DNA from: an uncultured bacterium
GTDB taxonomy: Bacteria > UBP6 > UBA1177
Direction of reading: 5' to 3'
DNA: 64,000 nucleotides
NCBI GenBank assembly: GCA_905235605.1
Contig: CAJOMF010000014.1
Span: forward strand, 4,662 to 68,661
Shown here: in pieces, positions 44,668-59,973 of the stretch
Layout of the letters: each line of letters starts with the position of its first letter
Position numbering within the stretch: position 1 is the stretch's first letter
The notes under the pieces: model-generated
The model's database searches: none
Seen by the model: only the letters and a program-made list of their open reading frames with translations
Told to the model about the DNA's origin: nothing
Translations under genes and position numbers: made by a program

Positions 44668-45480
44668 TCAAAAATTTTTCAGAGATTCTTTAAAAGGTTC
44701 AAAAAAACGGGAGAGTTTTTTGCTCGCCGCAGATTTTGTCAATCCGTATTTTTGGGCGATTTCCGTAAAATCGGGTCTGTAATCATGATCTGCTGAATAA
44801 GCGTCCAAAAGTTCCTTATCTATGAAAGTGTAATTCACCAAAATCTCAGGGTTAAGACCATACAACAACAAGTTTTGGAGTGTGGCCCGATAAAGTCTGT
44901 GATAAACCTCTGTAAGATCAAACTCCATTTTCAGAAGTAAGACTGTAAGGATCTCGGAGAGCATCTGATCAGGATTCTTTTTCCACTCTTCCTGGATCTT
45001 CGGGATGAGTTTCTGCAGATCTTTTTTCATAAGGCTTTTTTCCAATGGATCGGTGTCGTTATCTTCCAAAAGAGTGTCCAAAATGGAGAAAGTTTCTCCT
45101 TCATCATTCGTCTTTTCGAGTTCGGTGGTGTTTGCATGTTCTTGAATTTCTTCGCCTTTTGCGGTGTTTATCGCCTTTTTCAATGAATTGAAAAGATATT
45201 TGCTGAAAGGAGCACCATTTTTGCGTGTTTCTGACTCGGGAAACCATTTTAGGCAATCTATGACCACTTTACGAACTTCATCAACATATTCCCCGTAAGC
45301 TGATTTTTTGATCTCTTTGACTTTCAGGTCTGAATTCTGGGAGGCTCCTTTTGGGGTTAATGCTGCCAGAACGATTTTCCATGTAAAGCCTTTTATCGCG
45401 ACTTCGATGTTTTCACCACGATCAAGGGCGTTTTGATATCCTTCGTAAAGTTCGTTAATCTTTTCAAAAATTTTTTCCAT
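44668..45480 (-). CDS. Hypothetical protein with sigma-70-like region 2.2 and region 4 (HTH) signatures
   Basis: …NGAPFSKYLFNSLKKAINTAKGEE… resembles sigma region 2.2 (FSTYxxxxIRxAI). C-terminal …FTEIAQKYGLTKSAASKKLSRF resembles the region-4 HTH. First gene on the low-GC island side. Weak by-eye assignment. Confidence 0.35.
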   Translation of the reverse strand: MEKIFEKINELYEGYQNALDRGENIEVAIKGFTWKIVLAALTPKGASQNSDLKVKEIKKSAYGEYVDEVRKVVIDCLKWFPESETRKNGAPFSKYLFNSLKKAINTAKGEEIQEHANTTELEKTNDEGETFSILDTLLEDNDTDPLEKSLMKKDLQKLIPKIQEEWKKNPDQMLSEILTVLLLKMEFDLTEVYHRLYRATLQNLLLYGLNPEILVNYTFIDKELLDAYSADHDYRPDFTEIAQKYGLTKSAASKKLSRFFEPFKESLKNF

Positions 45481-45482
45481 GG

Positions 45483-46103
45483 TCAGTCCTCGAACAATGC
45501 GTTAATTGTCTTTATTGCTCGTTCACTGCTTGAAGTCTCGATCATGTTGGTAAAGTTCTGCATAAGATAGAGCGGGGTGATGTCGTAGATCATAGGTGAA
45601 CCTTCTACGATTTCGTTGTTTTTGAATTCAACTTTGGAATAAACAATGTAGCCGACGGAACAATCGAAAAATTTCTCTGCAAACTGGCACACTGTGAAAA
45701 GCAAAAATGCCAATGGTTTCGGGCCATAAGTAGTGTCGGCATAGATTTCGGCATCATGCTCGAGTTCTTTGAGGATGGCTTTGAACATAAACTGAAAATT
45801 TGTTTTCGACATATCGAACGCGCTCGGAAGTATTTTATAAGTGATTTTTGCTCCGACTTTGTTGAAATGATCGAGTTCTTCCTCAAAAAGTTTCGCGTTG
45901 TCGCTTCCAGCGTTTTCACCCCCTTTTGTCTCGAGAAGGAGAACTTTGACATCATCATCCGCTTTAAGCGAGTTTGCAAGAGCAGCTGTCGCAGCAAACA
46001 GAATAGGTTCTTTAATCTCAAGCAGAGCGTTGCCGTCAACGGGATAGACGCATTTTTTTAAATTCTTTTTAAGCGGAAGTGTTACGAATAGGATTTTTTT
46101 CAT
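45483..46103 (-). CDS. Hypothetical protein (possible Rossmann-like fold; DTTYGP motif)
   Basis: 206 aa with a 2-nt gap to the downstream sigma-like gene, so an operon. No recognisable family. Preceded by island motif copy 1. Confidence 0.4.
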   Translation of the reverse strand: MKKILFVTLPLKKNLKKCVYPVDGNALLEIKEPILFAATAALANSLKADDDVKVLLLETKGGENAGSDNAKLFEEELDHFNKVGAKITYKILPSAFDMSKTNFQFMFKAILKELEHDAEIYADTTYGPKPLAFLLFTVCQFAEKFFDCSVGYIVYSKVEFKNNEIVEGSPMIYDITPLYLMQNFTNMIETSSSERAIKTINALFED

Positions 46104-46145: not shown

Positions 46146-46178
46146 ATATAATCGGTGAAAAACGGATAAGTTGACAAA
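46146..46178. promoter_or_regulatory. Island-specific conserved motif, copy 1 (TATAAtCGGTGAAAAA-N8-GTTGACAAAA)
   Basis: 43 nt 5' of the 206-aa gene start, on the template of minus-strand genes. Four more copies elsewhere in the island. Confidence 0.5.
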
Positions 46179-46209: not shown

Positions 46210-47730
46210 TTATTGATGTTTTTCTTCACGTTTATCCATTTTCGCCAGCTCGAAAGTGAGATATATCAGGTAGATCTGAATCGCAAAAGCGTGCTTTTCA
46301 AAGAAATCGACCTCTTCGTTTTCGGAGCAGTAGAGAAAACTCATGAATTTTTTCAGATGAGCGCGTTCGTCTTCATCCAAAACATTATTATTATAGATAT
46401 TGGTTTTGTCGAGTTCCTCTTTGGGAAACTTGAGATAGCCGTCTTTATTGAAGACTTTACGCCATAATTCTTTATTGTTTGCCGCGTTGATGTTCAAAGG
46501 AGCCGTGATCTTTTTAAAATAATGCTCCAGAATTACGAGAAGTTTTTCCGCATTTTCTTTTTGAGCCGGATTTTTCTTAAGTTCACAGAGATATTGGTAA
46601 GAATCAAAAAAAGCGTAAAGGAGCAGCTTTTCCCAATACAATATTTGAAAATCGTTGAACATTTGGAAGTCGATATATTTGTCGAACAGTTTATAGACAG
46701 CGACATTCGCTCCCAAGTGGGTTATCCTGTTGCGTTCGGGATACAAAAACTTGTGATTCAGCGCACTTCTATTTGTAAAGCGGTCGTTTTTATTAGCTTT
46801 GATCGTTTGCCCGTCGAGCGAAGGATGTCCGTCCTGCCATTCCATTTCGGATTCTTCAAAGAATTTGCAGGTTATTTCCCTGCAGAATTTTTCATTTCCG
46901 GCAAAAAATGTCTGTGTAAAGCACTGATCCTTGAAACCGAAATCCAGTGTCTTGAGTGTTTTGAGATTAGTCAATACCTTTGTTATTTCTTCATTAGCTT
47001 CTGTATCGGTATAATTCGATTTTTTTCTGTTCGGGAAGATTTTAAGAATAGATTCCTGATGTTCCCTTACAAAATTCACCACATTTATGAGTTTTTCCCT
47101 CGGAACGGCTTCGTTTTCCGGCGGCATGAAATTAGCAAGGATGCGGAGAACGCCTTCATTCGCCTTGAAATAATTTCCTTCGAATTTCGTAAAATCGATA
47201 TCCGTGAATGGAGCTTTTTTTAAAAAACCGAGATCTTTGCTGATTTTATTAAGGATTTCACTCTGTTTTTCAGGCAGATACCAGGATTTTTCTTCCAAGG
47301 CCGAATCAAAAAGCTTCTTGATTTTCAATTTCCGTTCATCGGAAGCGAAAAATGTTCCGACTTCGCAGATGTCACGCAGCAGAAAGAAGAAAACTCCCTG
47401 CAGAAGCCGCATATCTTTTTCGAAAAGTTCAGGATCGATATTTTTGATCTTATCAGGTCTGGCAAGCGATATAACAGCAAAAGCCTTTTCCGCGATAGTT
47501 GTTCCAGCTATGATTCCGCTCGTTGCATTAAAAATATTTTGTTCGACTATGCTTTGGGGAGCAGAAAATACCTTTTTTAGAGAATCAATATTCAAGCCAC
47601 TTAAAGAGTTATAAAAAGCGAGAACCTTGTTCGGTTTTTCACTGAAACCACCGCGCAGGACCTCTTTGTTTTTCTTTATTTCTGCAATAATTTTATCAAG
47701 TTCTTCTTTTGATCTCATGGCATTCTCCAT
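46210..47730 (-). CDS. Hypothetical 506-aa protein (contains an Rx4H HEPN-like motif, RNRITH)
   Basis: Long ORF in the low-GC island with no recognisable catalytic family. The HEPN-like assignment is weak. Confidence 0.4.
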   Translation of the reverse strand: MENAMRSKEELDKIIAEIKKNKEVLRGGFSEKPNKVLAFYNSLSGLNIDSLKKVFSAPQSIVEQNIFNATSGIIAGTTIAEKAFAVISLARPDKIKNIDPELFEKDMRLLQGVFFFLLRDICEVGTFFASDERKLKIKKLFDSALEEKSWYLPEKQSEILNKISKDLGFLKKAPFTDIDFTKFEGNYFKANEGVLRILANFMPPENEAVPREKLINVVNFVREHQESILKIFPNRKKSNYTDTEANEEITKVLTNLKTLKTLDFGFKDQCFTQTFFAGNEKFCREITCKFFEESEMEWQDGHPSLDGQTIKANKNDRFTNRSALNHKFLYPERNRITHLGANVAVYKLFDKYIDFQMFNDFQILYWEKLLLYAFFDSYQYLCELKKNPAQKENAEKLLVILEHYFKKITAPLNINAANNKELWRKVFNKDGYLKFPKEELDKTNIYNNNVLDEDERAHLKKFMSFLYCSENEEVDFFEKHAFAIQIYLIYLTFELAKMDKREEKHQ

Positions 47731-47764
47731 TCAAAACAGCAATCCAATGATTCTGCTGATAAGA

Positions 47765-47797
47765 TATAAGCGGTGAAAAGAAGGGCGGTTGACAATT
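47765..47797. promoter_or_regulatory. Island-specific conserved motif, copy 2
   Basis: TATAAGCGGTGAAAAGAAGGGCGGTTGACAATT, 35 nt 5' of the 506-aa gene start. Confidence 0.5.
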
Positions 47798-48326
47798 ATT
47801 TTAACTTTTGTTGTTCTTTTTTTGTCGCATCATAGGCTTTTTTGACGCTTTTTTTGACTCCGTTGAAAGGGTTTAAAACGGAGTTTTTTGTCGAGTCTAC
47901 ATCCTCGTCATACCTTGCTGATGCGACCACATTATTTTCGAGATCGGTAAAAATAATGTAAAGAGTCCAGTTCCTCTGGTTGTCTTTGTCAATTTCCTCA
48001 TCAAAGTTTTTGAAAACAGTTCTATAATTCGTCAGGAAATTTTTCGAGTCAGTCTCAATTTTCTCCTTGTCTTTTTTATAACTGAGAACAAAACAGTGGA
48101 TCGGACTGTTCTGATAATAAGAACCAGTGTAATTGTCTCCTTCAAAATCACTGTTGATTTTTTGTCCGTTTATGCAACGCCTGTAATCATTGTTGCTTTG
48201 TCCATATGAGGTGGTGTATACATATGGAAAATCTGCAGTGGATTGCTTTTGCAGAGAAATCTTCTCAGCCCAAACGGCAGTAAAAACGAACAAAATGGCA
48301 AAAACAGCCAAAAATTTCTTTAACAT
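47796..48326 (-). CDS. Small secreted hypothetical protein
   Basis: Start placed at MLKKFLAVFAILFVFTAVWA (signal peptide). Asn/Tyr-rich. Lies between the 276-aa and 506-aa genes. Confidence 0.4.
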   Translation of the reverse strand: MLKKFLAVFAILFVFTAVWAEKISLQKQSTADFPYVYTTSYGQSNNDYRRCINGQKINSDFEGDNYTGSYYQNSPIHCFVLSYKKDKEKIETDSKNFLTNYRTVFKNFDEEIDKDNQRNWTLYIIFTDLENNVVASARYDEDVDSTKNSVLNPFNGVKKSVKKAYDATKKEQQKLK

Positions 48327-48403
48327 TTTTTCCTCCCTTAAGTTTAGATCCGTAATCAACCAAAATTCGAGTCAGAATAGTTAAAAATAGAGATTTGTAA
48401 ATA

Positions 48404-49234
48404 TTATGCGGCTTTGTCGAAAGCCAATATTTTATTGATCAATTTCGACAGTGATTCTTCTTTGAGTAATTTGCCGGTGAACTTTTTTATTGTTTTATGG
48501 TACTGACGTATATCGTATATGACCTCATCTTGCTGCTCTTTGTTTCTGAACCTCAATATCATAAAACGGATGTGTCTCTGGTATGCTTTGAAATCGGAAT
48601 TCACGAAATCATAAAATGTCTTTTCAGGGAAGCGTGTATGGTAAAATATTGCAAATTCGCTTCTTGCTTCCGTCAGATCGGAATAAGACGGCTTGTCACT
48701 GTGTTGGATATCTACTATTTCGTTGTTTATTTTTCTTTGGTTTGATTGAATGAGATCGTAACCTGGGAATTTTTTTGTTTTATCGGAACTCCAGTCTCTG
48801 TCGATGGGTTTTGACGGATCAAAAAACTCTCCCGAAAGGTCGTTGATGTAAAATTCCAGATCTTCGATCCCGATCTGCTTTATTTTGTGCTTTTTCTCCA
48901 TAAACTTCCGGCCTTCAAATGTGATTTCATAACTTTCGCCGTTTTCTTTCAGCAGCTCGTTCTTTATCAGGAAATTGAATTGCATATTCAGAAAACTGTT
49001 GCTGTCTATGCCCAGGAAAGAGCATATTTTCGAATATTCGGTAATACCGTTGTCGACAAGTTTCAGGATCACCATGCTGAAACGGTCGATTTCTCTTTCA
49101 GTTTCAAAAGCGACTTTCTGTTTGCATTTCCAGAACGGGAGATCAATTTCGAAAATGTCTTCCAGCTGGAATCCTTCCGTTGAGTATTCGTCCTTGTAAA
49201 GTTCCCAGATCCTCTGTTTAAGTTCTCTATCCAT
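48404..49234 (-). CDS. Hypothetical 276-aa protein (possible wHTH), translationally coupled to the upstream helicase
   Basis: 8-nt overlap with the helicase stop (…ATGGATAG…). Central segment resembles a winged helix. Confidence 0.45.
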   Translation of the reverse strand: MDRELKQRIWELYKDEYSTEGFQLEDIFEIDLPFWKCKQKVAFETEREIDRFSMVILKLVDNGITEYSKICSFLGIDSNSFLNMQFNFLIKNELLKENGESYEITFEGRKFMEKKHKIKQIGIEDLEFYINDLSGEFFDPSKPIDRDWSSDKTKKFPGYDLIQSNQRKINNEIVDIQHSDKPSYSDLTEARSEFAIFYHTRFPEKTFYDFVNSDFKAYQRHIRFMILRFRNKEQQDEVIYDIRQYHKTIKKFTGKLLKEESLSKLINKILAFDKAA

Positions 49235-52214
49235 TGAAAACCTCCTCCAAACTGTTGAATATAAGACCTTCTTTCTGAAGTTTTTCTGCTATTTTCTGCA
49301 ATTTGAATTCCGGAAAATCCTCCGACGGGGTGAATGTCGCCCTGTTCAGGAGGTAATCGCTGTCTCCGACTACGAACAGCAGGCGTTTCGCTCTCGAAAA
49401 TGCGACGTTGATCCTTCGGTAATCGGCTAAAAATCCGATGTTGTCCTGCCCCTGAGCACTTCTGACGATGTCGTAGATTATGATATCGCGTTCGGCTCCC
49501 TGAAATTTGTCGACAGTCTTTATTTCTATGAGGGGCTCACCCTTTTCCGTTACGAAATTACGGTATTTTTTCAGATTGATCTTCTGCTTCAGAAGCTCCA
49601 CCTGACCTTTGTAGGCGGCTATAACACCAATAGTGAGCGGCTTCTCTTTTTTCGTATTGGACGGATAAAGCGAGTTGAGTTTTTCAAGCAGTTCTTTTAT
49701 GGCTTCGACATTGCACTGGTTCTGGCGGAAGAATTTGTTGCCGTTGTCGTAAGGCTGAGGTCTTTGGGAAGTGCTCAAAAACGCTATGGATGTCGGTTTT
49801 TTCAAATTCAGACCATGTGCCTTGTCGGCATCGAAGCCGGGAATATCAGGGTTTTTGAGTTTGCCGTCGTAAAAGAATTCCGAGATCAGGCTCCCGATCT
49901 GTTTAGGCATCCGGTACTGGATATCGAGCATTCTTATGAAACGCTCGTTCGGAGTTCCCTGAAATCCTTTTTTTATTTTTTCGAAAAGACTGACTCCGTA
50001 GGTTTTGTCTATATCGAGACCGTCGTCTTCCATTTTTTCTCTGACATTCTTTCTTACAGCTTCTTCTCTTGTGATAACTGGCGGAAGCTGCCTGTCATCT
50101 CCTATCATTATGATGTTTTTCCCCATGCTCAAAGGGACAAGCGATTCTGCAGGGGTGGCTTTGCTGCTTTCATCCATTATTACATAGTCGAATTCAAAAT
50201 GTATATTCCGATATTTGCTGCTTGCGATATGGATGCATGTCGCTCCGACAACATTCGTGTTGTTAAGCATCGCGCTCAGGAGATCTATCTTTTCGCTTCC
50301 GTTGTCCAGCAGTGCTTTGTTTTTGAGCAGACCGTTGCCTATAAATGCAAGCCAATCTTTATTTATCTCAAGCAATATCCCGTTTTGGTCTTTGTCCGCG
50401 AACTCTTTTGAAAAATTTTCCGATGATGTTTTTGCCGTGTCGTTTATGTATTTTTCCAGCTTTTTTTCGAAGCAGTGCTGTTTCATCAGAATCGAAACAT
50501 TGTCCTTTTCCAAAGCGTTGTCACTTGCCAGCCGCATGAATGTCACATCTTTTTCTCCAGCAAGTTTTTCCAGGACGTTGTCCACTGCCAGATTCGACTG
50601 GGATGTCAGCAGGATCCTGACGTTTTTATTCTGTTTGATCAATTGGAGTATGATCTCAAGGATAACTGTCGTCTTGCCTGTTCCGGGAGGGCCTTGAATG
50701 AGGTATATCGGTTTGTAGTTGATCGCATCGACAACAGCTTCCAATTGAGATTCATCGTTTTCCAGCTTAGGATTGAAAAGATCATTCAGAATGTCGGCAT
50801 GATCCGATGGATGGATTCTGCAAGGTATTTCGCTTTCAGGCGTGGTTACTATGTCACACAGTTGTTTATTCACAATATCGCGCTGTTGAAATTGCTGACA
50901 GGCCTCTATCTGCTTTTTAAACTGGCTCGTTTTTTGATTGGTGTCTTCTGTAATGGTCCATGATTCAGGGATTTCTTCAATATTCCGTTTTGGATCTTTT
51001 ATCGTTATAGTTCCATCTTCCGGGCCGTAGTCGAGGATCTCACCGATCAGCGGAAGCGGAGGTTTTTTGCTCTGTAAAAACACTTTCGTTTGTTCATTTT
51101 TCAGTTCTTTGATCTTGCCCCAGTTGATCCCAGTATAGTCCTTTAAATAGAAGATCAAATCACCGTTGTCGCTTTCTTCTACCTTGTCATACTTTACTGC
51201 AAAGGCATTTTCTTCGATGTAGCGTTTTTCCGACTGAGGCAGTTCCTTCCAAATCTCCAATTCATTTTGTTGAGTCCGGTTCAATTCAGACAGCCTGTTG
51301 CTTTTCACTGCTGAGCGGAAATGGCGGCTCAATGGTGGCAGTTTTTTCAGCAGATCTATCAGATCTGCATACTTAGAAAAACGTTCGGTGCGTTCCTCTG
51401 CCAATGACCCAGACAGTATCAGATCGATGGTCTCCTTATGGTCTTCAGTCGCATAATTCTCTCTGATAAAATCCTCGAAAGTCTTTATGAGAGAGTAGAT
51501 ATCATCCTGAAAATTTATCCGGCCGTTTCTGCTAGAAAGATATCTTTTTGCTCCAGCAGAAAGATAATTTTGATCAAGCAGTCCTTCATCGGCGAAGATG
51601 TCGAAAAGTTTTGCGAAAAGGAGTTCTGCACGTCCCTCATCGTCAATTTTGATGTATTTTGGTGATATTATGAATTTCTCTGAATTCTCGTTTTTCTTGA
51701 ACCAATCGAGGCCGAGAGCAATATTGGTAACATCGGTGATATCAACTTTTTCGGCGGATTCTTCAAGCATGTTGTCTCCGAAATTCTCATAAACTATGTA
51801 ATAAAAATGCTGATTTTCATCGTATCCTGTATCCATGATCTTTACAAATCCAGGGATCTCTTTGTCAATCAAAGGCTTTATTTCGTAATCAAGGATCCTT
51901 TTTATCTTTCTGGCGTTTGTTTCCGTTTCTTTTATCATCAGAATGTCAAAGATTTCGCCTTCACGGTTTTCGCACCCTTCGAAAAAACGGAGGTTGGAAC
52001 TTAATTCTTTCGAAGCTGAGATAACGGTGTAATTTCCTATCGTTTCTGTGCCCGATATGTCATTTGCTGCACTCTCTTCCTCTTCTTCAAAGACCTCTTC
52101 GGAATCAAAATCCATGCTTAATGATTCATAAGAAAAGAAACGGTCGGATCTCCCCGAATAGGTGAGTTCTTCGATCGGTTCTCCGAGATAGAATAAATTC
52201 GAGTTTTTTTTCAT
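49227..52214 (-). CDS. Upf1-like SF1B helicase (DNA2/NAM7, AAA_11/AAA_12-type) with roughly 480-aa uncharacterised N-terminal domain
   Basis: Walker A GPPGTGKTT. Motif II VIMDESSKA. Motif III/IV region. Motif VI KFQGAERDIIIYDIVRS. Start placed at MKKNSNLF (ATG 52214) after GGAGG. N-terminal half has no clear family but shows a kinase-like beta3-K / hinge pattern. Confidence 0.7.
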   Translation of the reverse strand: MKKNSNLFYLGEPIEELTYSGRSDRFFSYESLSMDFDSEEVFEEEEESAANDISGTETIGNYTVISASKELSSNLRFFEGCENREGEIFDILMIKETETNARKIKRILDYEIKPLIDKEIPGFVKIMDTGYDENQHFYYIVYENFGDNMLEESAEKVDITDVTNIALGLDWFKKNENSEKFIISPKYIKIDDEGRAELLFAKLFDIFADEGLLDQNYLSAGAKRYLSSRNGRINFQDDIYSLIKTFEDFIRENYATEDHKETIDLILSGSLAEERTERFSKYADLIDLLKKLPPLSRHFRSAVKSNRLSELNRTQQNELEIWKELPQSEKRYIEENAFAVKYDKVEESDNGDLIFYLKDYTGINWGKIKELKNEQTKVFLQSKKPPLPLIGEILDYGPEDGTITIKDPKRNIEEIPESWTITEDTNQKTSQFKKQIEACQQFQQRDIVNKQLCDIVTTPESEIPCRIHPSDHADILNDLFNPKLENDESQLEAVVDAINYKPIYLIQGPPGTGKTTVILEIILQLIKQNKNVRILLTSQSNLAVDNVLEKLAGEKDVTFMRLASDNALEKDNVSILMKQHCFEKKLEKYINDTAKTSSENFSKEFADKDQNGILLEINKDWLAFIGNGLLKNKALLDNGSEKIDLLSAMLNNTNVVGATCIHIASSKYRNIHFEFDYVIMDESSKATPAESLVPLSMGKNIIMIGDDRQLPPVITREEAVRKNVREKMEDDGLDIDKTYGVSLFEKIKKGFQGTPNERFIRMLDIQYRMPKQIGSLISEFFYDGKLKNPDIPGFDADKAHGLNLKKPTSIAFLSTSQRPQPYDNGNKFFRQNQCNVEAIKELLEKLNSLYPSNTKKEKPLTIGVIAAYKGQVELLKQKINLKKYRNFVTEKGEPLIEIKTVDKFQGAERDIIIYDIVRSAQGQDNIGFLADYRRINVAFSRAKRLLFVVGDSDYLLNRATFTPSEDFPEFKLQKIAEKLQKEGLIFNSLEEVFNG

Positions 52215-52251
52215 TTTTTCCTCCTTGAGAAGCGTTACATCCAACACCACT

Positions 52252-52284
52252 TATAAGCGGTGAAAAATCCCTGAGTTGACAAAA
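52252..52284. promoter_or_regulatory. Island-specific conserved motif, copy 3
   Basis: TATAAGCGGTGAAAAATCCCTGAGTTGACAAAA, 38 nt 5' of the helicase start. Confidence 0.5.
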
Positions 52285-54407: not shown

Positions 54408-54440
54408 TGTAAGGGGTGGAAAATGAGAGAGTTGACAAAA
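54408..54440. promoter_or_regulatory. Island-specific conserved motif, copy 4 (degenerate 5' half)
   Basis: TGTAAGGGGTGGAAAATGAGAGAGTTGACAAAA. Confidence 0.45.
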
Positions 54441-54454
54441 TTTGCCTCCTTTTT

Positions 54455-55012
54455 TCATACTAAAGTGTTAAAAAGCCTGTCCCCAGTGTCTGGTCCTATG
54501 CCGTTTTTTTGAGTCAAAACTTTTTGACCGACAAAAGAATTATTTGAAACTCTGACTGTAAAAACTTCATAATCGTTGAATTTTTTAATAGATTTCTCGC
54601 ACAAAACATTCGTGACAATTTTAATTTTATCTTTTGGAATCTCAGATTTTTCGATTGCACTCAAAATGCCCTTTCCTGAATTGATAACTGCATCTACGAA
54701 AATAACGTCTTTGTTGAAAAGCAGCAGTTTGTTTTTCTCAAAAAAATCCTTGTCTGTTTTGTCATCGTAAAATGTTACGGCACAATCCAGACAATCTGCA
54801 AAACCTAAAGCCATTGGAATCCCAGCCCTTATTAAAGCTATGATTATGGAATCTTTTGTGAAGTGATTTTTAAAATATTTCCCTAATGCAAATCCCAAAT
54901 CAATATGAGCATGTCTCAATTCAGCTCCAGTTTTTTGAGAGTCACTTTTGCAAATACTGATTGCGTCAACAATTTTATCTGTTGAAAAATTTTCGCTTAA
55001 AACATACAGCAT
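54455..55012 (-). CDS. Uracil phosphoribosyltransferase-like PRTase (Upp family)
   Basis: PRPP-binding loop VIFVDAVINSGKG. C-terminal GIGPDTGDRLFNT matches the Upp tail (GLGDAGDRLFGT). GAGGAG RBS. 2-nt gap to the upstream gene. Confidence 0.65.
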   Translation of the reverse strand: MLYVLSENFSTDKIVDAISICKSDSQKTGAELRHAHIDLGFALGKYFKNHFTKDSIIIALIRAGIPMALGFADCLDCAVTFYDDKTDKDFFEKNKLLLFNKDVIFVDAVINSGKGILSAIEKSEIPKDKIKIVTNVLCEKSIKKFNDYEVFTVRVSNNSFVGQKVLTQKNGIGPDTGDRLFNTLV

Positions 55013-55014
55013 TA

Positions 55015-56220
55015 CTATTCTCCTCTGATTCCTTTATATTGATTTTCATTCCCTGCAAACTGTCGTATTGCGGTGTTTCTATGATTATCAATGTATGTTT
55101 GTACAGCAGGTCTTATTTTCCCTGGAGCCCAGAGGTAGCCGCTTGACATTTCAAGCATATAAATGTCGCACATGCTGTCTCCGGCACTAAAAACTTCGTA
55201 ATTTTGTAACAGAAGCAATTCTACGACATAACCTTTGACAAAATCCGAGATAAGATTCTTTGAGTTTTGGTTGAGATCGTTGCCTATTACCATTTCAAAT
55301 AAATGATGCTCTGCATTGAATTGATTCCAAAATTTATATATTCCAGAGGTGAGTCCAAACACGTGATACCCAGAAGTTTTTAAAGATTTTAGTTTTTCGA
55401 TGACGATATTATTGGCATGAAATAAAGAGGTCTTAGGGTGTTTTTTGAAGTTCTTGTATAATTCCTTTTGTCGCCAAAACTGATATACAGAATAGATATC
55501 GTCTGTAAAAATGGTTTTTAATATTGCAGGATCGGTGTTGTTGAGTTCAAAAAACGGAATAGTCGAATCCTCTTTAATGATGGTCTTGTCACAATCAAAT
55601 ATGGCGATTTTTTTAAATTTGTTTGGGTCGGAGCGTGTGTTCTCAATTTGAGAAACAATTCTTTGAGCTATGTTCATAGGTGTTAATTCAGGGAAACAAT
55701 CCATGTATTCATGCAAAAACTTCATGTCCAGATCAAAATCAGCATCCAGAACAATGAATTCTTTACGAGATTTGAAGCATATATCTCTAAGTTCCGAAAT
55801 CTCTTTTAATTGCCAATCTTTTATTTGTTGTTCCGTAAGATTTCTAAATTTTTGATTTTTCTGGCTTAAATTTATTCTTTCTTTTGCAATAGATGGATTG
55901 ACGTGCAGGTACAAAAATATGTCGTACAACTTACAATCGTTTTCTGTGCAAACAATTTTAAAACTTTGAGAATCAGGAAAACAATAGTGACCATCGACAA
56001 TAAAATCCTGTTGATTTTTTAATTCTTCTGCGAAAATAGTTCTTGTCCTTTTTTGAAGTTCGGAATCTAATTCCTGAAAATTTTTGCAATATATCCTGTT
56101 AGATATGATGTTTAATTGCTCAGATCCTTTCTTGTGGCAGTATTGCGGAAAATGACGAAGAAATTTTTCTATAAACGTGTCTTTCCCGGCACAGGAAATT
56201 CCATATACAGCAATCTTCAT
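55015..56220 (-). CDS. Fusion of a P-loop nucleoside/nucleotide kinase-like domain (Udk/NRK-like) and a HAD-superfamily phosphatase domain
   Basis: N-terminal KIAVYGISCAGKDT P-loop. C-terminal HAD motif I IAIFDCDKTII (DxDxT) and motif IV GDSMCD. ATGA overlap with the radical SAM gene. Confidence 0.6.
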   Translation of the reverse strand: MKIAVYGISCAGKDTFIEKFLRHFPQYCHKKGSEQLNIISNRIYCKNFQELDSELQKRTRTIFAEELKNQQDFIVDGHYCFPDSQSFKIVCTENDCKLYDIFLYLHVNPSIAKERINLSQKNQKFRNLTEQQIKDWQLKEISELRDICFKSRKEFIVLDADFDLDMKFLHEYMDCFPELTPMNIAQRIVSQIENTRSDPNKFKKIAIFDCDKTIIKEDSTIPFFELNNTDPAILKTIFTDDIYSVYQFWRQKELYKNFKKHPKTSLFHANNIVIEKLKSLKTSGYHVFGLTSGIYKFWNQFNAEHHLFEMVIGNDLNQNSKNLISDFVKGYVVELLLLQNYEVFSAGDSMCDIYMLEMSSGYLWAPGKIRPAVQTYIDNHRNTAIRQFAGNENQYKGIRGE

Positions 56221-57128
56221 TTTATATCCCCTATATATTTGTCAAAATAGCATTCCCCGTCATTAAGCTGCTTAAATCGTTGCATGGATTTTTCTACCGA
56301 TATTAACGAATCTGACGCCTTGCCTATTTCATATTCAGGTAGTCCGATGAATCTGCCGCAAGGGTATATTTTATTGTTCGCATAAAAAATGTTTGTTTTT
56401 CCGACCCCGCATAACTGACCATACATCGTGCAGTCGTATCGTTTGGGTTTGCGCAACTGTCTCAGTAACAGTTTTTTTTGAGAGGCCTCCTCTATAAATT
56501 TAATAAAATCGCCTTTGGATATGTATAAATCCGGAGATTTTTCATCCACAAGTCTGGAAAAGCAGACTTCGGAAAAATTCTGCTCAAAAAATCTAAGAGT
56601 TTCTGTTTCGCTGCTCAGTGTTCCTTTGTGAACAGTTGCATTTACGGAAGGTGTTTCCTGAAAGATTTTTTTATATAGATTTATAGAGTTCATTACAATG
56701 TCAAAGGAGCCTTTTCCGTAGGCAAGTGTTCTGCATGAATCATGTAGATTTTTATCGCCGTCTATGGAAAAACATAGTTTTATTAAATCCCGATTGTTGT
56801 GGAACCACCGGATAATATTTTCTGTGGCAGAGATCCCGTTGGTTATGGTGTAAAAAGACAGCAGTTTATGTTTGGCGATCAGCCTGGTATACGAGACAGC
56901 TTCTTGTATTAAATCAAACCGGATTAACGGTTCCCCTGCGCCGACAAGTCCGATTTTGAAATTTATCTTGTTCTCTTCTGAATAAGCAACAATGTTGGAT
57001 ATAATATTGAGCAGAACTTCTGTAGAAATGTCATTGCAAGACTGCTTTGAAACATGCTTGTCAAAGTGGCAGTATCTGCAGCGAAGTTGGCATTTGCCTG
57101 TTATGGAAATACAAGCTCTGTCAATCAT
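56217..57128 (-). CDS. Radical SAM enzyme, MoaA/viperin-like (CxxxCxxC near N-terminus, GAGEPL)
   Basis: ISITGKCQLRCRYC (CX3CX2C) resembles the MoaA N-terminus (ISVTDRCNLRCTYC). …NKINFKIGLVGAGEPL… resembles viperin/MoaA (EKINFSGGEPF). C-terminal Cys pair. Start at MIDRAC (ATG 57128) after GAGG. Confidence 0.7.
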   Translation of the reverse strand: MIDRACISITGKCQLRCRYCHFDKHVSKQSCNDISTEVLLNIISNIVAYSEENKINFKIGLVGAGEPLIRFDLIQEAVSYTRLIAKHKLLSFYTITNGISATENIIRWFHNNRDLIKLCFSIDGDKNLHDSCRTLAYGKGSFDIVMNSINLYKKIFQETPSVNATVHKGTLSSETETLRFFEQNFSEVCFSRLVDEKSPDLYISKGDFIKFIEEASQKKLLLRQLRKPKRYDCTMYGQLCGVGKTNIFYANNKIYPCGRFIGLPEYEIGKASDSLISVEKSMQRFKQLNDGECYFDKYIGDIK

Positions 57129-57129
57129 T

Positions 57130-58389
57130 TCAGACCTCATTGTTTTCAGTTTTTGCAAATTTTTTATTAATTTCAGGATCGTTGATTTGGAGGGCATAAT
57201 CTTTGGCGGTTTTGTTTTCGTAACGACTGTGAATATTTAAGTCTGTTTTATCAACAAGATAGTTTGCAACATCAGAACACTTTCTAATGCAAGCTTTTAT
57301 TAAAGGCGTAAAACCGTTGGAATCCTGTTGGTTGCAGCAAGCTCCCTGTTCAACAAGATATTTTACTATCTCAAGTTCTCCATGCCATGCAGCGATCATC
57401 AAAGCAGTGTTTCCGTAATTATCGCCTTGCGAACCTTTGTCTATGTCAGCCCCGTTTTGCAATAGGATTTTTATAAATTCTAAATTTTTTATTTGAACCG
57501 CATGGCTAATTGGTGGAAGTCTGTATTTTGCATCGTCGCATTTATTTATATCTGTTCCCGGCAGGGAAATAAGGTATTCGAGCATTTTTTTGTCTCTATT
57601 TCTGATTGCTTGAATGCAAGGGGTATATCCCGTTTTGGGGTCAGTATGATTTATGTCGGGATTTCCCTTTTTTACTTTCTCTGCATCCAAAATATTTCCG
57701 TTTTTAACAGCATTGTAAAAATTGCCGGTGTCTCTGGGGCTAAAATCTTCATCCGATAGAGAGAATTCTCTTTCGTAATCCTCAAGATTTAACACTTTGA
57801 AATTTAGAGTTGATGCAGCTTTCAAAGGGAAATAAACATCTTCAGCAAGAAGAAAAACGGTTAGTGATGAGTCTTTTTTGGCTTCACGCAGAGCAGCATT
57901 TATGATTTTATTGTCGTTGAAATTCTCATTTTTATTAACAACATCTTCGAGAACTAAAAATCTTTTTTCATCTTTTTTCTGCAAATCAACAAAAGACTTC
58001 ATAGCTAGCCAAGCCTGTTGCTTTCGTTTTCCACGATCTTTTTGGTAATTCATTTCATCAAGAACTGTTTCGGTAATGCAGATATAGTTAATGGCTTTTT
58101 TTCCATTCATTTCTTCCAAAATTCTTGGTCTGCGGCACAATATGGATGAATCCACGATCAGCATGATTTTTTTTGATTTTTTCAATCCTAACAATTCGTC
58201 AATGCTCACACAAAATGTTTGAGCTATTTGAATTAGCTGGTCGGTTGTCGGAAGACTTTTCGCTTGTTCCCAATTCGACACTGTAGGTCTTGAAACATTG
58301 AGCTTGTTTGCAAACTCTTCTTGTTTTAGCCCTTTGGAATTTCTTAACTCTTCAATGTTTTTAGCAATTTCGTCTTTTGAGTAATTCAT
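57130..58389 (-). CDS. XRE-family HTH + PIN-like domain + ankyrin-repeat protein
   Basis: HTH_XRE (LKQEEFANKLNVSRPTVSNWEQ). PIN-like acidic motifs (KIMLIVDSSIL…ITETVLDEM). At least two ankyrin repeats (GNTALMIAAWHGELEIVKYLVEQGA…). AGGAG RBS. Confidence 0.6.
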   Translation of the reverse strand: MNYSKDEIAKNIEELRNSKGLKQEEFANKLNVSRPTVSNWEQAKSLPTTDQLIQIAQTFCVSIDELLGLKKSKKIMLIVDSSILCRRPRILEEMNGKKAINYICITETVLDEMNYQKDRGKRKQQAWLAMKSFVDLQKKDEKRFLVLEDVVNKNENFNDNKIINAALREAKKDSSLTVFLLAEDVYFPLKAASTLNFKVLNLEDYEREFSLSDEDFSPRDTGNFYNAVKNGNILDAEKVKKGNPDINHTDPKTGYTPCIQAIRNRDKKMLEYLISLPGTDINKCDDAKYRLPPISHAVQIKNLEFIKILLQNGADIDKGSQGDNYGNTALMIAAWHGELEIVKYLVEQGACCNQQDSNGFTPLIKACIRKCSDVANYLVDKTDLNIHSRYENKTAKDYALQINDPEINKKFAKTENNEV

Positions 58390-58590: not shown

Positions 58591-58624
58591 TATAAGCGTC
58601 AAAAACTTTCTGAGTTGACAAATA
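58591..58624. promoter_or_regulatory. Island-specific conserved motif, copy 5
   Basis: TATAAGCGTCAAAAACTTTCTGAGTTGACAAATA, about 200 nt 5' of the XRE-PIN-ANK gene. Confidence 0.45.
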
Positions 58625-59680: not shown

Positions 59681-59768
59681 TGGTGCCGGAGACCGGGCTC
59701 GAACCGGTACAGGAGGTTATCCCGAGGGATTTTAAGTCCCTTGCGTCTACCAATTCCGCCACTCCGGC
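59681..59768 (-). tRNA. tRNA-Leu (anticodon UAA), CCA encoded
   Basis: Minus-strand read: GCCGGAGTGGCGGAATTGGTAGACGC…AGGGACTTAAAATCCCT…GGTTCGAGCCCGGTCTCCGGCACCA. Long variable arm. Anticodon loop CTTAAAA. Confidence 0.85.
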
Positions 59769-59785
59769 GGTTATAAGTTTGAAAA

Positions 59786-59859
59786 TGGAGGCACCTTCCG
59801 GATTCGAACCGGAGATGGAGATTTTGCAGACCTCTGCCTTACCTCTTGGCTAAGGTGCC
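59786..59859 (-). tRNA. tRNA-Cys (anticodon GCA), CCA encoded
   Basis: GGCACCTTAGCCAAGAGGTAAGGCAGAGGTCTGCAAAATCTCC…GGTTCGAATCCGGAAGGTGCCTCCA. Anticodon loop CTGCAAA. Confidence 0.85.
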
Positions 59860-59897
59860 GACCAAAAAGAATTTCGATTGAAAAAGGACATAAAAAA

Positions 59898-59973
59898 ATG
59901 GAGCGGGAAACGGGATTCGGACCCGCGACGTCTACCTTGGCAAGGTAGCACTCTACCACTGAGTTATTCCCGC
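59898..59973 (-). tRNA. tRNA-Gly (anticodon GCC), CCA encoded
   Basis: GCGGGAATAACTCAGTGGTAGAGTGCTACCTTGCCAAGGTAGACGTCGCGGGTCCGAATCCCGTTTCCCGCTCCA. Anticodon loop TTGCCAA. Confidence 0.85.

Follow-up and report, generated by a model that had tools for sequence, protein, structure and literature searches.

We analyzed a 64,000-nucleotide stretch of contig CAJOMF010000014.1 from an uncultured bacterium (the whole stretch is referred to as the window), which carries on its minus strand two adjacent genes, one for a Upf1-like superfamily 1B (SF1B) helicase and one for a partner protein of 276 amino acids (aa). An initial annotation, made from the sequence alone, had proposed these genes as a helicase-based defence module. 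We place the pair in a sister clade of the Mokosh type I defence system. It has an MkoA-type helicase and a co-oriented, adjacent MkoB homologue, and we do not file it as a member of Mokosh type I because an active Ser/Thr kinase and a partner bearing a phospholipase D (PLD) domain with the HxK(x)4D motif are both absent.

Two translationally coupled genes

Both open reading frames (ORFs) are present on the minus strand. The longest helicase ORF runs from a GTG at 52250 to 49227; the likely start, read directly, is the ATG at 52214, which lies 6 nt 3' of AAGGAGG, giving a protein of 995 aa and not 1007. In near-identical public contigs the helicase gene is likewise called at 995 aa, and the two proteins of the source organism carry the names 'AAA family ATPase' and 'hypothetical protein'. 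The partner ORF extends from 49234 to 48404. The TAG stop codon of the helicase gene falls within the start region of the partner gene, ATGGATAG, where the 8-nt overlap claimed in the initial annotation can be read directly, and a ribosome-binding site, GGAGGAGG, is present 5' of the partner ATG. The partner gene is translationally coupled to the helicase gene. A hairpin is found at the 3' end of the partner gene; because its tail is weak, we take it as only a hint that the operon ends there. The features of the locus are collected in Table 1.

Table 1 Features of the helicase-partner locus and copies of the upstream motif (positions are those of the window)
Feature	Positions	Strand	Description or basis
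MkoA-like helicase gene	49227-52214	minus	995 aa + stop; acidic tail, predicted pseudokinase, linker, Upf1-like SF1B helicase
Partner gene	48404-49234	minus	276 aa + stop; MkoB-like, without PLD
Acidic N-terminal extension, helicase aa 1-55	52050-52214	minus	composition and alignment
Protein-kinase-like domain, helicase aa ~56-300	51315-52049	minus	PDB profile matches, lost catalytic residues
Upf1-like SF1B helicase core, aa 481-995	49230-50774	minus	Pfam, motifs, PDB
Walker A	50670-50693	minus	within the helicase core
Walker B	50163-50174	minus	within the helicase core
MkoB-type N-terminal module, partner aa 1-131	48842-49234	minus	beta-hairpin, winged helix-turn-helix (aa ~50-115), further strand
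Partner C-terminal domain, aa 132-276	48407-48841	minus	conserved residues, confident model
Terminator-like hairpin	48409-48426	minus	7-bp stem, then CATAATATTT (consensus scan)
Promoter- or operator-like motif TTGTCAAC-N8-TTTTCACCGCTTATA	52252-52282	minus	upstream of the helicase gene; one of 5 copies in the window
Other copies of this motif	46147-46177; 47765-47795; 54408-54438; 58591-58621	minus	

The helicase is a MkoA homologue with an intact motor

The C-terminal half of the helicase has two RecA domains and the motifs of superfamily 1: GPPGTGKT (residues 508-515), DESS (681-684), GDDRQLPP (705-712), QGAERD (905-910) and RINVAFSRA (934-942). In an alignment, the ATPase/helicase motifs (Walker A, Walker B, III, V and VI) are intact and invariant over 22 homologues. 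Pfam assigns AAA_11 (2.9e-39) and AAA_12 (5.4e-45), and TIGR00376, the IGHMBP2 family, matches at 1.3e-72, which is below the curated cut-off of that family. The nearest solved structures, found with phmmer against the PDB, are Upf1 (1.3e-35), IGHMBP2 (1.6e-34) and Sen1 (1.2e-33), with Nam7, Dna2, Aquarius and ZNFX1 as further close relatives of the motor. The initial description of the protein as a Upf1-like SF1B helicase therefore stands.

The same description had assigned it to the class of defence helicases used by Mokosh, Hna and Nhi. The Mokosh part of this assignment was borne out: the PADLOC MkoA profile PDLC03920 matches at E=4e-137, aligning helicase residues 232-990 with profile positions 334-1096 of 1112, while the MkoC profile matches at 2.6e-35 and covers the C-terminal helicase part alone. 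The Hna and Nhi parts were not, as neither model is among the 18 PADLOC families listed for the helicase at E<=0.1. We also found no nuclease domain in the helicase by Pfam. Judged by its sequence, the first gene encodes a homologue of MkoA whose Upf1-like SF1B ATPase/helicase core is intact.

The window helicase is a shortened version of this architecture. Compared with 21 homologues, it lacks, together with its two closest relatives, P0023 and P0024, about 118 alignment columns between the kinase-like domain and the helicase, a segment that is beta-rich in the other proteins, and in the same three proteins the helicase insertion is shorter by about 63 columns. The shortened version is kept in relatives at 85% identity. 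One distant helicase match, P0082, was discarded, as its locus proved not to be Mokosh.

The kinase-like domain has lost its catalytic residues

The N-terminal 480 aa, which the initial annotation had treated as one domain with a faint protein-kinase-like pattern, consist of three pieces according to the alignment with 21 homologues: an acidic tail (residues 1-55), a conserved domain (about 56-300) and a linker of the MkoA type. The acidic tail, with 16 Asp/Glu in the first 60 residues, is seen only in the window protein, P0023 and P0024. The kinase pattern itself is genuine. Pfam gave nothing useful on the isolated N-terminal 480 aa; a profile of the conserved domain searched against PDB sequences returned Ser/Thr kinases in 19 of 21 matches, with StkP as the best (E=0.006), followed by CDK12/13, CaMKK2 and CDK6.

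The catalytic residues, among them the Lys that anchors ATP, are replaced. In the DILMIK stretch a Leu, invariant in the family, stands at the position of the beta3 Lys; IISPKYI occupies the place of HRDLKPxN, and LLFAKLF that of DFG. We scored these positions over 44 loci with a short partner (about 33 of them distinct), counting only helicases with a complete N-terminus, and the beta3 Lys, the catalytic Asp and the DFG Asp were each found in 0 of 44. In contrast, the 19 helicases with a PLD-bearing partner retain the beta3 Lys in 18 cases, the catalytic Asp in 17, the catalytic-loop Asn in 18 and the DFG Asp in all 19, and a distant canonical MkoA from Caldilineaceae (L059) has a plain PknB-like kinase (E=3e-36). 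The sequences thus indicate that the N-terminal domain has a kinase-like fold and is catalytically dead, that is, a pseudokinase.

The partner is MkoB-like and ends before the PLD

On the partner, Pfam recognises only a winged helix (HTH_45, residues 54-120) and no PLDc. The PADLOC MkoB profile PDLC03922 matches at 1e-6, over profile positions 5-132 of 610 only. Comparing the partner family with 22 canonical MkoB proteins in hhalign gave a probability of 99.5% (E=8e-23), mainly from the N-terminal 130 aa. The C-terminal 145 residues alone showed a weak, collinear likeness to the middle region of MkoB (P=0.017 and 0.032; reversed control 0.61). All genes between 44.6 and 52.3 kb lack the HxK(x)4D motif. 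Together with the Pfam results, this confirms the initial impression that no PLD or other nuclease domain is recognisable at the locus, and the partner described there as 'non-canonical' turns out to originate from MkoB without its PLD domain. The PLD may have been lost outright or exchanged for another domain; either way, the partner is without a PLD.

An exhaustive profile search with the partner returned 94 representative clusters. About 30 of these are full-length two-domain proteins of 270-310 aa, like the window partner, and the more distant clusters have only the first ~130 residues in common with it. Among the distant relatives, those of 433-491 aa are genuine MkoB proteins (PADLOC MkoB 1e-27 to 1e-66, PLD region included) with HxK(x)4D at about residues 380-430; in others, the N-terminal module precedes a PLD and a TIR domain, a PLD and a Ppx/GppA domain, or Ppx/GppA alone. 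A search with the N-module alignment alone gave two proteins, and no partner match was found in plasmid or phage collections.

Two groups among the distant matches of the exhaustive search stand out. In P0172, P0164 and P0177 the MkoB N-module is fused to a Ppx/GppA phosphatase, with or without a PLD, or to a PLD and a ThsB-like TIR domain, and these fusions could be effector variants of Mokosh type I that have not been described so far. A second short, PLD-less group of 246-283 aa, which includes P0128, P0139, P0140, P0153, P0158 and P0160, is more distant and has no recognisable C-terminal domain; its match to the C-terminal domain of the window type is weak (E 2e-8 to 0.02).

The partner structure was predicted from a 43-sequence alignment with a pLDDT of 89.9 and a pTM of 0.75, whereas AlphaFold2 on 19 close homologues had reached a pLDDT of 56, with residues 116-221 unmodelled. 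In the model, a winged helix-turn-helix (wHTH) is inserted in a long beta-sheet scaffold, and its three-helix bundle and beta-wing can be superposed on MarR-like wHTH DNA-binding domains. Compared with solved and viral structure sets, the partner had no match outside the wHTH. The C-terminal domain has a set of conserved residues: D145 (37/41), Y159 (42/43), H178 (34/42), D209 (40/43, within F207-Y208-D209-F210), R243 (34/42) and E259 (41/43). Its best-conserved positions are mostly aromatic or aliphatic (F156, F194, F197, F207, F210, I222, F224 and F252). The second gene is therefore MkoB-like, with an N-terminal winged-helix module and a 145-aa C-terminal domain and without the PLD nuclease.

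The short-partner helicases form one clade

Scanning metagenomes with a canonical MkoB subfamily gave 37 loci, in which a MkoA of 1100-1170 aa is followed by a PLD-bearing MkoB (HRKLVIKD); this longer MkoA aligns with the window helicase family along its entire length. When the helicase cores were placed in a neighbour-joining tree, the 32 short-partner helicases fell into one clade, whose sister group is the 17 PLD-partnered ones. The simplest history would have kinase catalysis and the PLD disappear in one ancestral step, after which the clade persisted for a long time and spread to different phyla. In the searchable literature we found no Mokosh described as PLD-less or kinase-dead.

The pair is a sporadic, self-contained unit

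We looked for the helicase family in 185,579 species genomes, taking one genome per species, and found full-length members in about 40 of them, at 43-61% identity. Many carriers are Flavobacteriaceae, including Kordia, Lacinutrix, Bizionia, Dokdonia and Flavicella; others belong to Paludibacteraceae, Chitinophagales, Aureispira, Roseivirga, Fibrobacterota and Balneolaceae, and among metagenome-assembled genomes there are also carriers from Gammaproteobacteria, Alphaproteobacteria and Nitrospinales. Isolates of Riemerella anatipestifer, with locus L011 in CP072190, and of Flavobacterium carry the family as well. Wherever downstream DNA exists (about 36 species genomes), the gene after the helicase encodes the two-domain partner, and in these related loci the two genes abut or overlap. 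The 276-aa gene is thus a true partner, as the initial annotation supposed.

The flanks of these loci vary. Among 110 flanking genes, even the most frequent family is represented at most 4 times by Pfam and at most 6 times by PADLOC, and there is no third conserved gene near the pair. The commonest flanking families are type I restriction-modification (RM) methylases, GmrSD, ResIII/DEAD helicases and mad2, along with SspE, Schlafen-AlbA_2 and AbiEii-like ATPases. Hence the pair is a self-contained two-gene unit, kept across several phyla in variable, often defence-rich neighbourhoods. The initial annotation had named a conserved housekeeping RNA-decay or replication complex as the finding that would speak against defence. 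The pair is not housekeeping, because it is sporadic and has neighbours of the RM methylase and GmrSD type.

In several loci from Bacteroidia and Balneolaceae (L007, L013/L049, L017 and L032), the pair lies directly 3' of a full-length dnaK (Pfam HSP70 ~1e-261), which is probably a recurrent insertion site and not a functional link. Duplications were observed too: in a metagenomic contig (L005, 783-4563) a second helicase copy begins right after the partner gene, and the Kordia contig NZ_CANMEZ010000001.1 has two separate copies of the pair (L033 and L037). Because of these duplications, the data suggest that the genes are diversifying accessory genes.

The pair lies among operons with a common upstream motif

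In the window, the surroundings of the pair comprise a CARF protein, a radical SAM/phosphoribosyltransferase (PRTase) operon, a gene for a protein with helix-turn-helix (HTH), PIN and ankyrin domains, and a tRNA cluster by a low-GC stretch. The 'island motif' that the initial annotation had seen upstream of the helicase gene is real. This 31-nt motif, TTGTCAAC-N8-TTTTCACCGCTTATA, has five copies in 64 kb, where 0 are expected by chance; all lie within 46-58.6 kb, on the minus strand. The helicase copy ends 37 nt 5' of the start codon, and four of the five copies end 34-43 nt 5' of the leading gene of an operon; these are the CARF operon, the gene for a 506-aa protein, the helicase gene and a 96-aa ORF heading the PRTase operon. 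The fifth copy is located about 200 nt upstream of the HTH-PIN-ankyrin gene. The motif resembles a common promoter or operator. Of 94 loci, those of the same organism alone carry it, which makes it a feature of the island and not of the gene pair.

The notion that the genes sit in a low-GC island holds in part: GC content is clearly low only at 46-49 kb (0.36-0.38), whereas the helicase gene, at 0.41-0.44, is near the window mean. A cluster of tRNA-Leu, tRNA-Cys and tRNA-Gly genes (59681-59973, minus strand) borders the lower-GC stretch (about 45-59 kb), and such a tRNA cluster at a stretch edge is the usual site of an integrated island.

Next to the pair, at 46210-48359 on the minus strand, the 506-aa protein, with its own copy of the motif, is encoded beside a small protein with a signal peptide. 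The latter had been called as a 187-aa secreted protein; the signal peptide is there, but the protein is more likely 176 aa long, with MLKKF as its N terminus, and its conservation does not follow that of the pair. The 506-aa protein has no family match. We could not uphold these two proteins as components of the system, as they accompany the pair in near-identical contigs only and other loci have different downstream genes.

The CARF operon (44668-46103, minus strand) encodes a CARF-only protein of 206 aa (PADLOC CARF2 1.7e-72) and, after it, a protein of 270 aa whose C-terminal part contains an HTH-like stretch. The 270-aa protein matched nothing in NCBIfam or the PDB, and its Pfam matches were weak and below threshold. 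These two proteins may be a cyclic-oligoadenylate-responsive regulator pair. A role for the 270-aa protein as a sigma-like factor for the island motif is a guess that found no support in Pfam, NCBIfam or PDB sequence searches. On the other side, at 54455-58389 (minus strand), an operon encodes a PRTase-like protein (185 aa), a fusion of a P-loop kinase and a HAD phosphatase (401 aa) and a radical SAM/SPASM protein (326 aa), with the XRE-HTH, PIN and ankyrin protein (419 aa) encoded upstream. The PRTase, kinase-HAD and radical SAM operon resembles a nucleotide-modifying conflict system.

A model for a PLD-less Mokosh module and its alternatives

On balance, we consider it probable, though far from certain, that the locus is a helicase-centred, two-protein conflict module derived from Mokosh type I in which kinase catalysis and the PLD were lost. 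Our model suggests that the pair would still act as a conflict or anti-phage module, driven by the ATPase of the helicase. The MkoB-type N-module would dock on the helicase and/or bind nucleic acid through its wHTH; we single it out because it is the sole part common to all partner types, whether these carry a PLD, a PLD with TIR, a PLD with Ppx/GppA, Ppx/GppA alone or no such domain. The pseudokinase could be a scaffold or a (ligand) sensor. As output, we hypothesize that the helicase, driven by ATP, translocates 5' to 3' along phage RNA or single-stranded DNA and that this movement may evict polymerases or ribonucleoproteins (RNPs) or unwind phage replication and transcription intermediates, in a manner analogous to Sen1 and Upf1. 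With no nuclease in the pair, such translocation would be the most economical output. The partner would set the specificity of the helicase or gate it, and the module would not cleave. This cleavage-free mechanism takes roughly half of the weight within the reading of the locus as a Mokosh-derived conflict module.

Several points weigh against this proposal. In the published, canonical Mokosh systems, protection against phage depends on ATP binding by the helicase and on the PLD active site, mutation of which abolished defence (10.1101/2022.05.11.491447), which leaves a PLD-less version without a demonstrated mode of action. The C-terminal domain of the partner keeps the polar residues D145, H178, D209, R243 and E259; these could form an active site, and a cleavage-free mechanism would then be unnecessary. 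Docking of the N-module and the nucleic-acid substrate are both deduced from domain architecture alone. The counts of neighbouring families are low, none exceeding 4-6 of 110, and the helicase tree is a neighbour-joining tree without support values. Finally, the joint loss of kinase and PLD was probably one event, and for this reason it gives no statistical evidence of a coupling between them.

The polar residues lead to the strongest alternative, which we regard as possible but clearly less likely: the 145-aa C-terminal domain would be a new effector, for example a nuclease of unrecognised fold, that has replaced the PLD, so that the helicase senses and the partner cleaves. This domain is present wherever the clade occurs, Y159 is near-invariant together with the polar residues just named, and partners of the MkoB type are modular at their C-termini. 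It also folds confidently with no match in the PDB or viral structure sets. However, it has no known catalytic motif, and its most conserved positions are of the aromatic and aliphatic kind expected of a structural core or an interface. The weak collinear likeness to the non-catalytic middle of MkoB likewise speaks for loss of the PLD, not for its replacement.

A composite reading seems to us rather doubtful, slightly more so than the new effector. Here the sister clade would still confer immunity without kinase catalysis or PLD, either by the motor alone or by a C-terminal effector of new fold, and in the organism of the window it would be switched on together with four neighbouring operons through the shared motif. 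In its motor-only version, a Upf1/Sen1-like helicase would be gated by the pseudokinase and the wHTH subunit.

That the pair is only a sensor, with its effector acting in trans (the 187-aa and 506-aa island proteins, or recruited host RNases or nucleases), appears improbable to us. The specific upstream motif that the helicase operon has in common with four neighbouring operons suggests co-regulation, and eukaryotic Upf1 recruits separate decay factors. Yet the genes for both island proteins are confined to near-identical contigs, no neighbour gene is conserved over the ~36 other genomes, and the signal peptide of the 187-aa protein would place it outside the cytoplasm.

We hold it to be just as improbable that the pair has no immune role and is an accessory RNA/DNA helicase with a winged-helix regulator, serving in the turnover of host RNA, in transcription termination or in repair. 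In favour of such a role, the pair has lost the two catalytic activities that mark the defence system, the helicases of known structure nearest to it (Upf1, Sen1 and IGHMBP2) have housekeeping functions on RNA or R-loops, and several Bacteroidia loci adjoin dnaK. The role is difficult to reconcile with a sporadic occurrence over unrelated phyla (about 40 matches in all), with two copies of the pair on one Kordia contig, with variable flanks enriched in RM, GmrSD and Abi-type genes, and with a window locus in a low-GC, tRNA-flanked stretch; moreover, the nearest relatives of the pair are validated defence proteins. A decaying, non-functional Mokosh type I remnant, as the lost kinase residues and PLD and the two internal deletions of the window helicase (about 118 and 63 alignment columns) might suggest, is the least credible of all, given that the ORFs are intact, the helicase motifs invariant, the genes still coupled at 43-61% identity over several phyla, and the clade split into more than 30 lineages, with even the deleted version conserved at 85% identity.

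If the pair defends, as the Mokosh-derived conflict-module model proposes, nuclease cleavage is not the sole output of the Mokosh lineage, and the retained parts would represent its core sensing and motor machinery. If it does not, the clade exemplifies an immune module that was stripped down and reused. In either case, it is a natural version of Mokosh type I pared down to helicase, kinase scaffold and N-terminal MkoB part, and would be helpful as a dissection, made by nature, of a defence system that is poorly understood. It also offers a construct of only two genes in which to test MkoA on its own, and its hosts include cultivable bacteria such as Riemerella and Flavobacterium. By inference, annotation tools that demand a PLD-bearing MkoB would probably report only an orphan MkoA at such loci.

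Comparison with known systems

Mokosh type I (Millman et al. 2022) has the same gene order and coupling as the window pair. Its MkoA is homologous to the window helicase over the full length, through the kinase fold, the linker and the Upf1-like COG1112 helicase, and its MkoB has the N-terminal winged-helix module in common with the window partner. The differences lie in the catalytic parts: the type I kinase has the beta3 Lys, catalytic Asp and DFG Asp, of which the window clade has none, and canonical MkoB is a protein of 433-511 aa with HxK(x)4D, whereas the 276-aa window partner ends before the PLD and has no such motif. In addition, the window helicase differs from type I by its acidic tail and by the missing ~118 and ~63 alignment columns. 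An attempt to purify Mokosh type I failed (10.1101/2025.07.10.664194). In Mokosh type II, MkoC contains a Upf1-like helicase of the same broad family, but it joins this helicase to a C-terminal PLD in one polypeptide that has no kinase domain, while the window pair consists of two genes without a PLD; the MkoC match to the helicase part alone agrees with the lack of a helicase-PLD fusion.

Gabija, Hachiman, Nhi-like and Hna systems also combine a large NTPase or helicase with a smaller partner, as in the window pair, and in these two-gene nuclease-NTPase systems both proteins are found in a complex (10.1101/2025.07.10.664194). In them, the partner or a fused domain is a recognisable nuclease, unlike in the window pair, where none is recognisable. 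Membership in Hna or Nhi was considered and rejected, on the family models that PADLOC listed at E<=0.1 and on the Pfam search for nuclease domains.

Outside defence, the nearest solved motor structures are those of eukaryotic Upf1/Nam7, Sen1, IGHMBP2, MOV10L1 and ZNFX1 (1e-35 to 1e-18). The window helicase lacks the CH domain and the other eukaryotic accessory domains of these proteins, and its pseudokinase N-terminus and wHTH partner are bacterial and specific to the Mokosh lineage. Upf1 and Sen1 have no nuclease of their own and, by 5'-to-3' translocation, remodel RNPs or dislodge RNA polymerase. Because both act without their own nuclease, Upf1 and Sen1 would be the best functional analogy for the PLD-less module.

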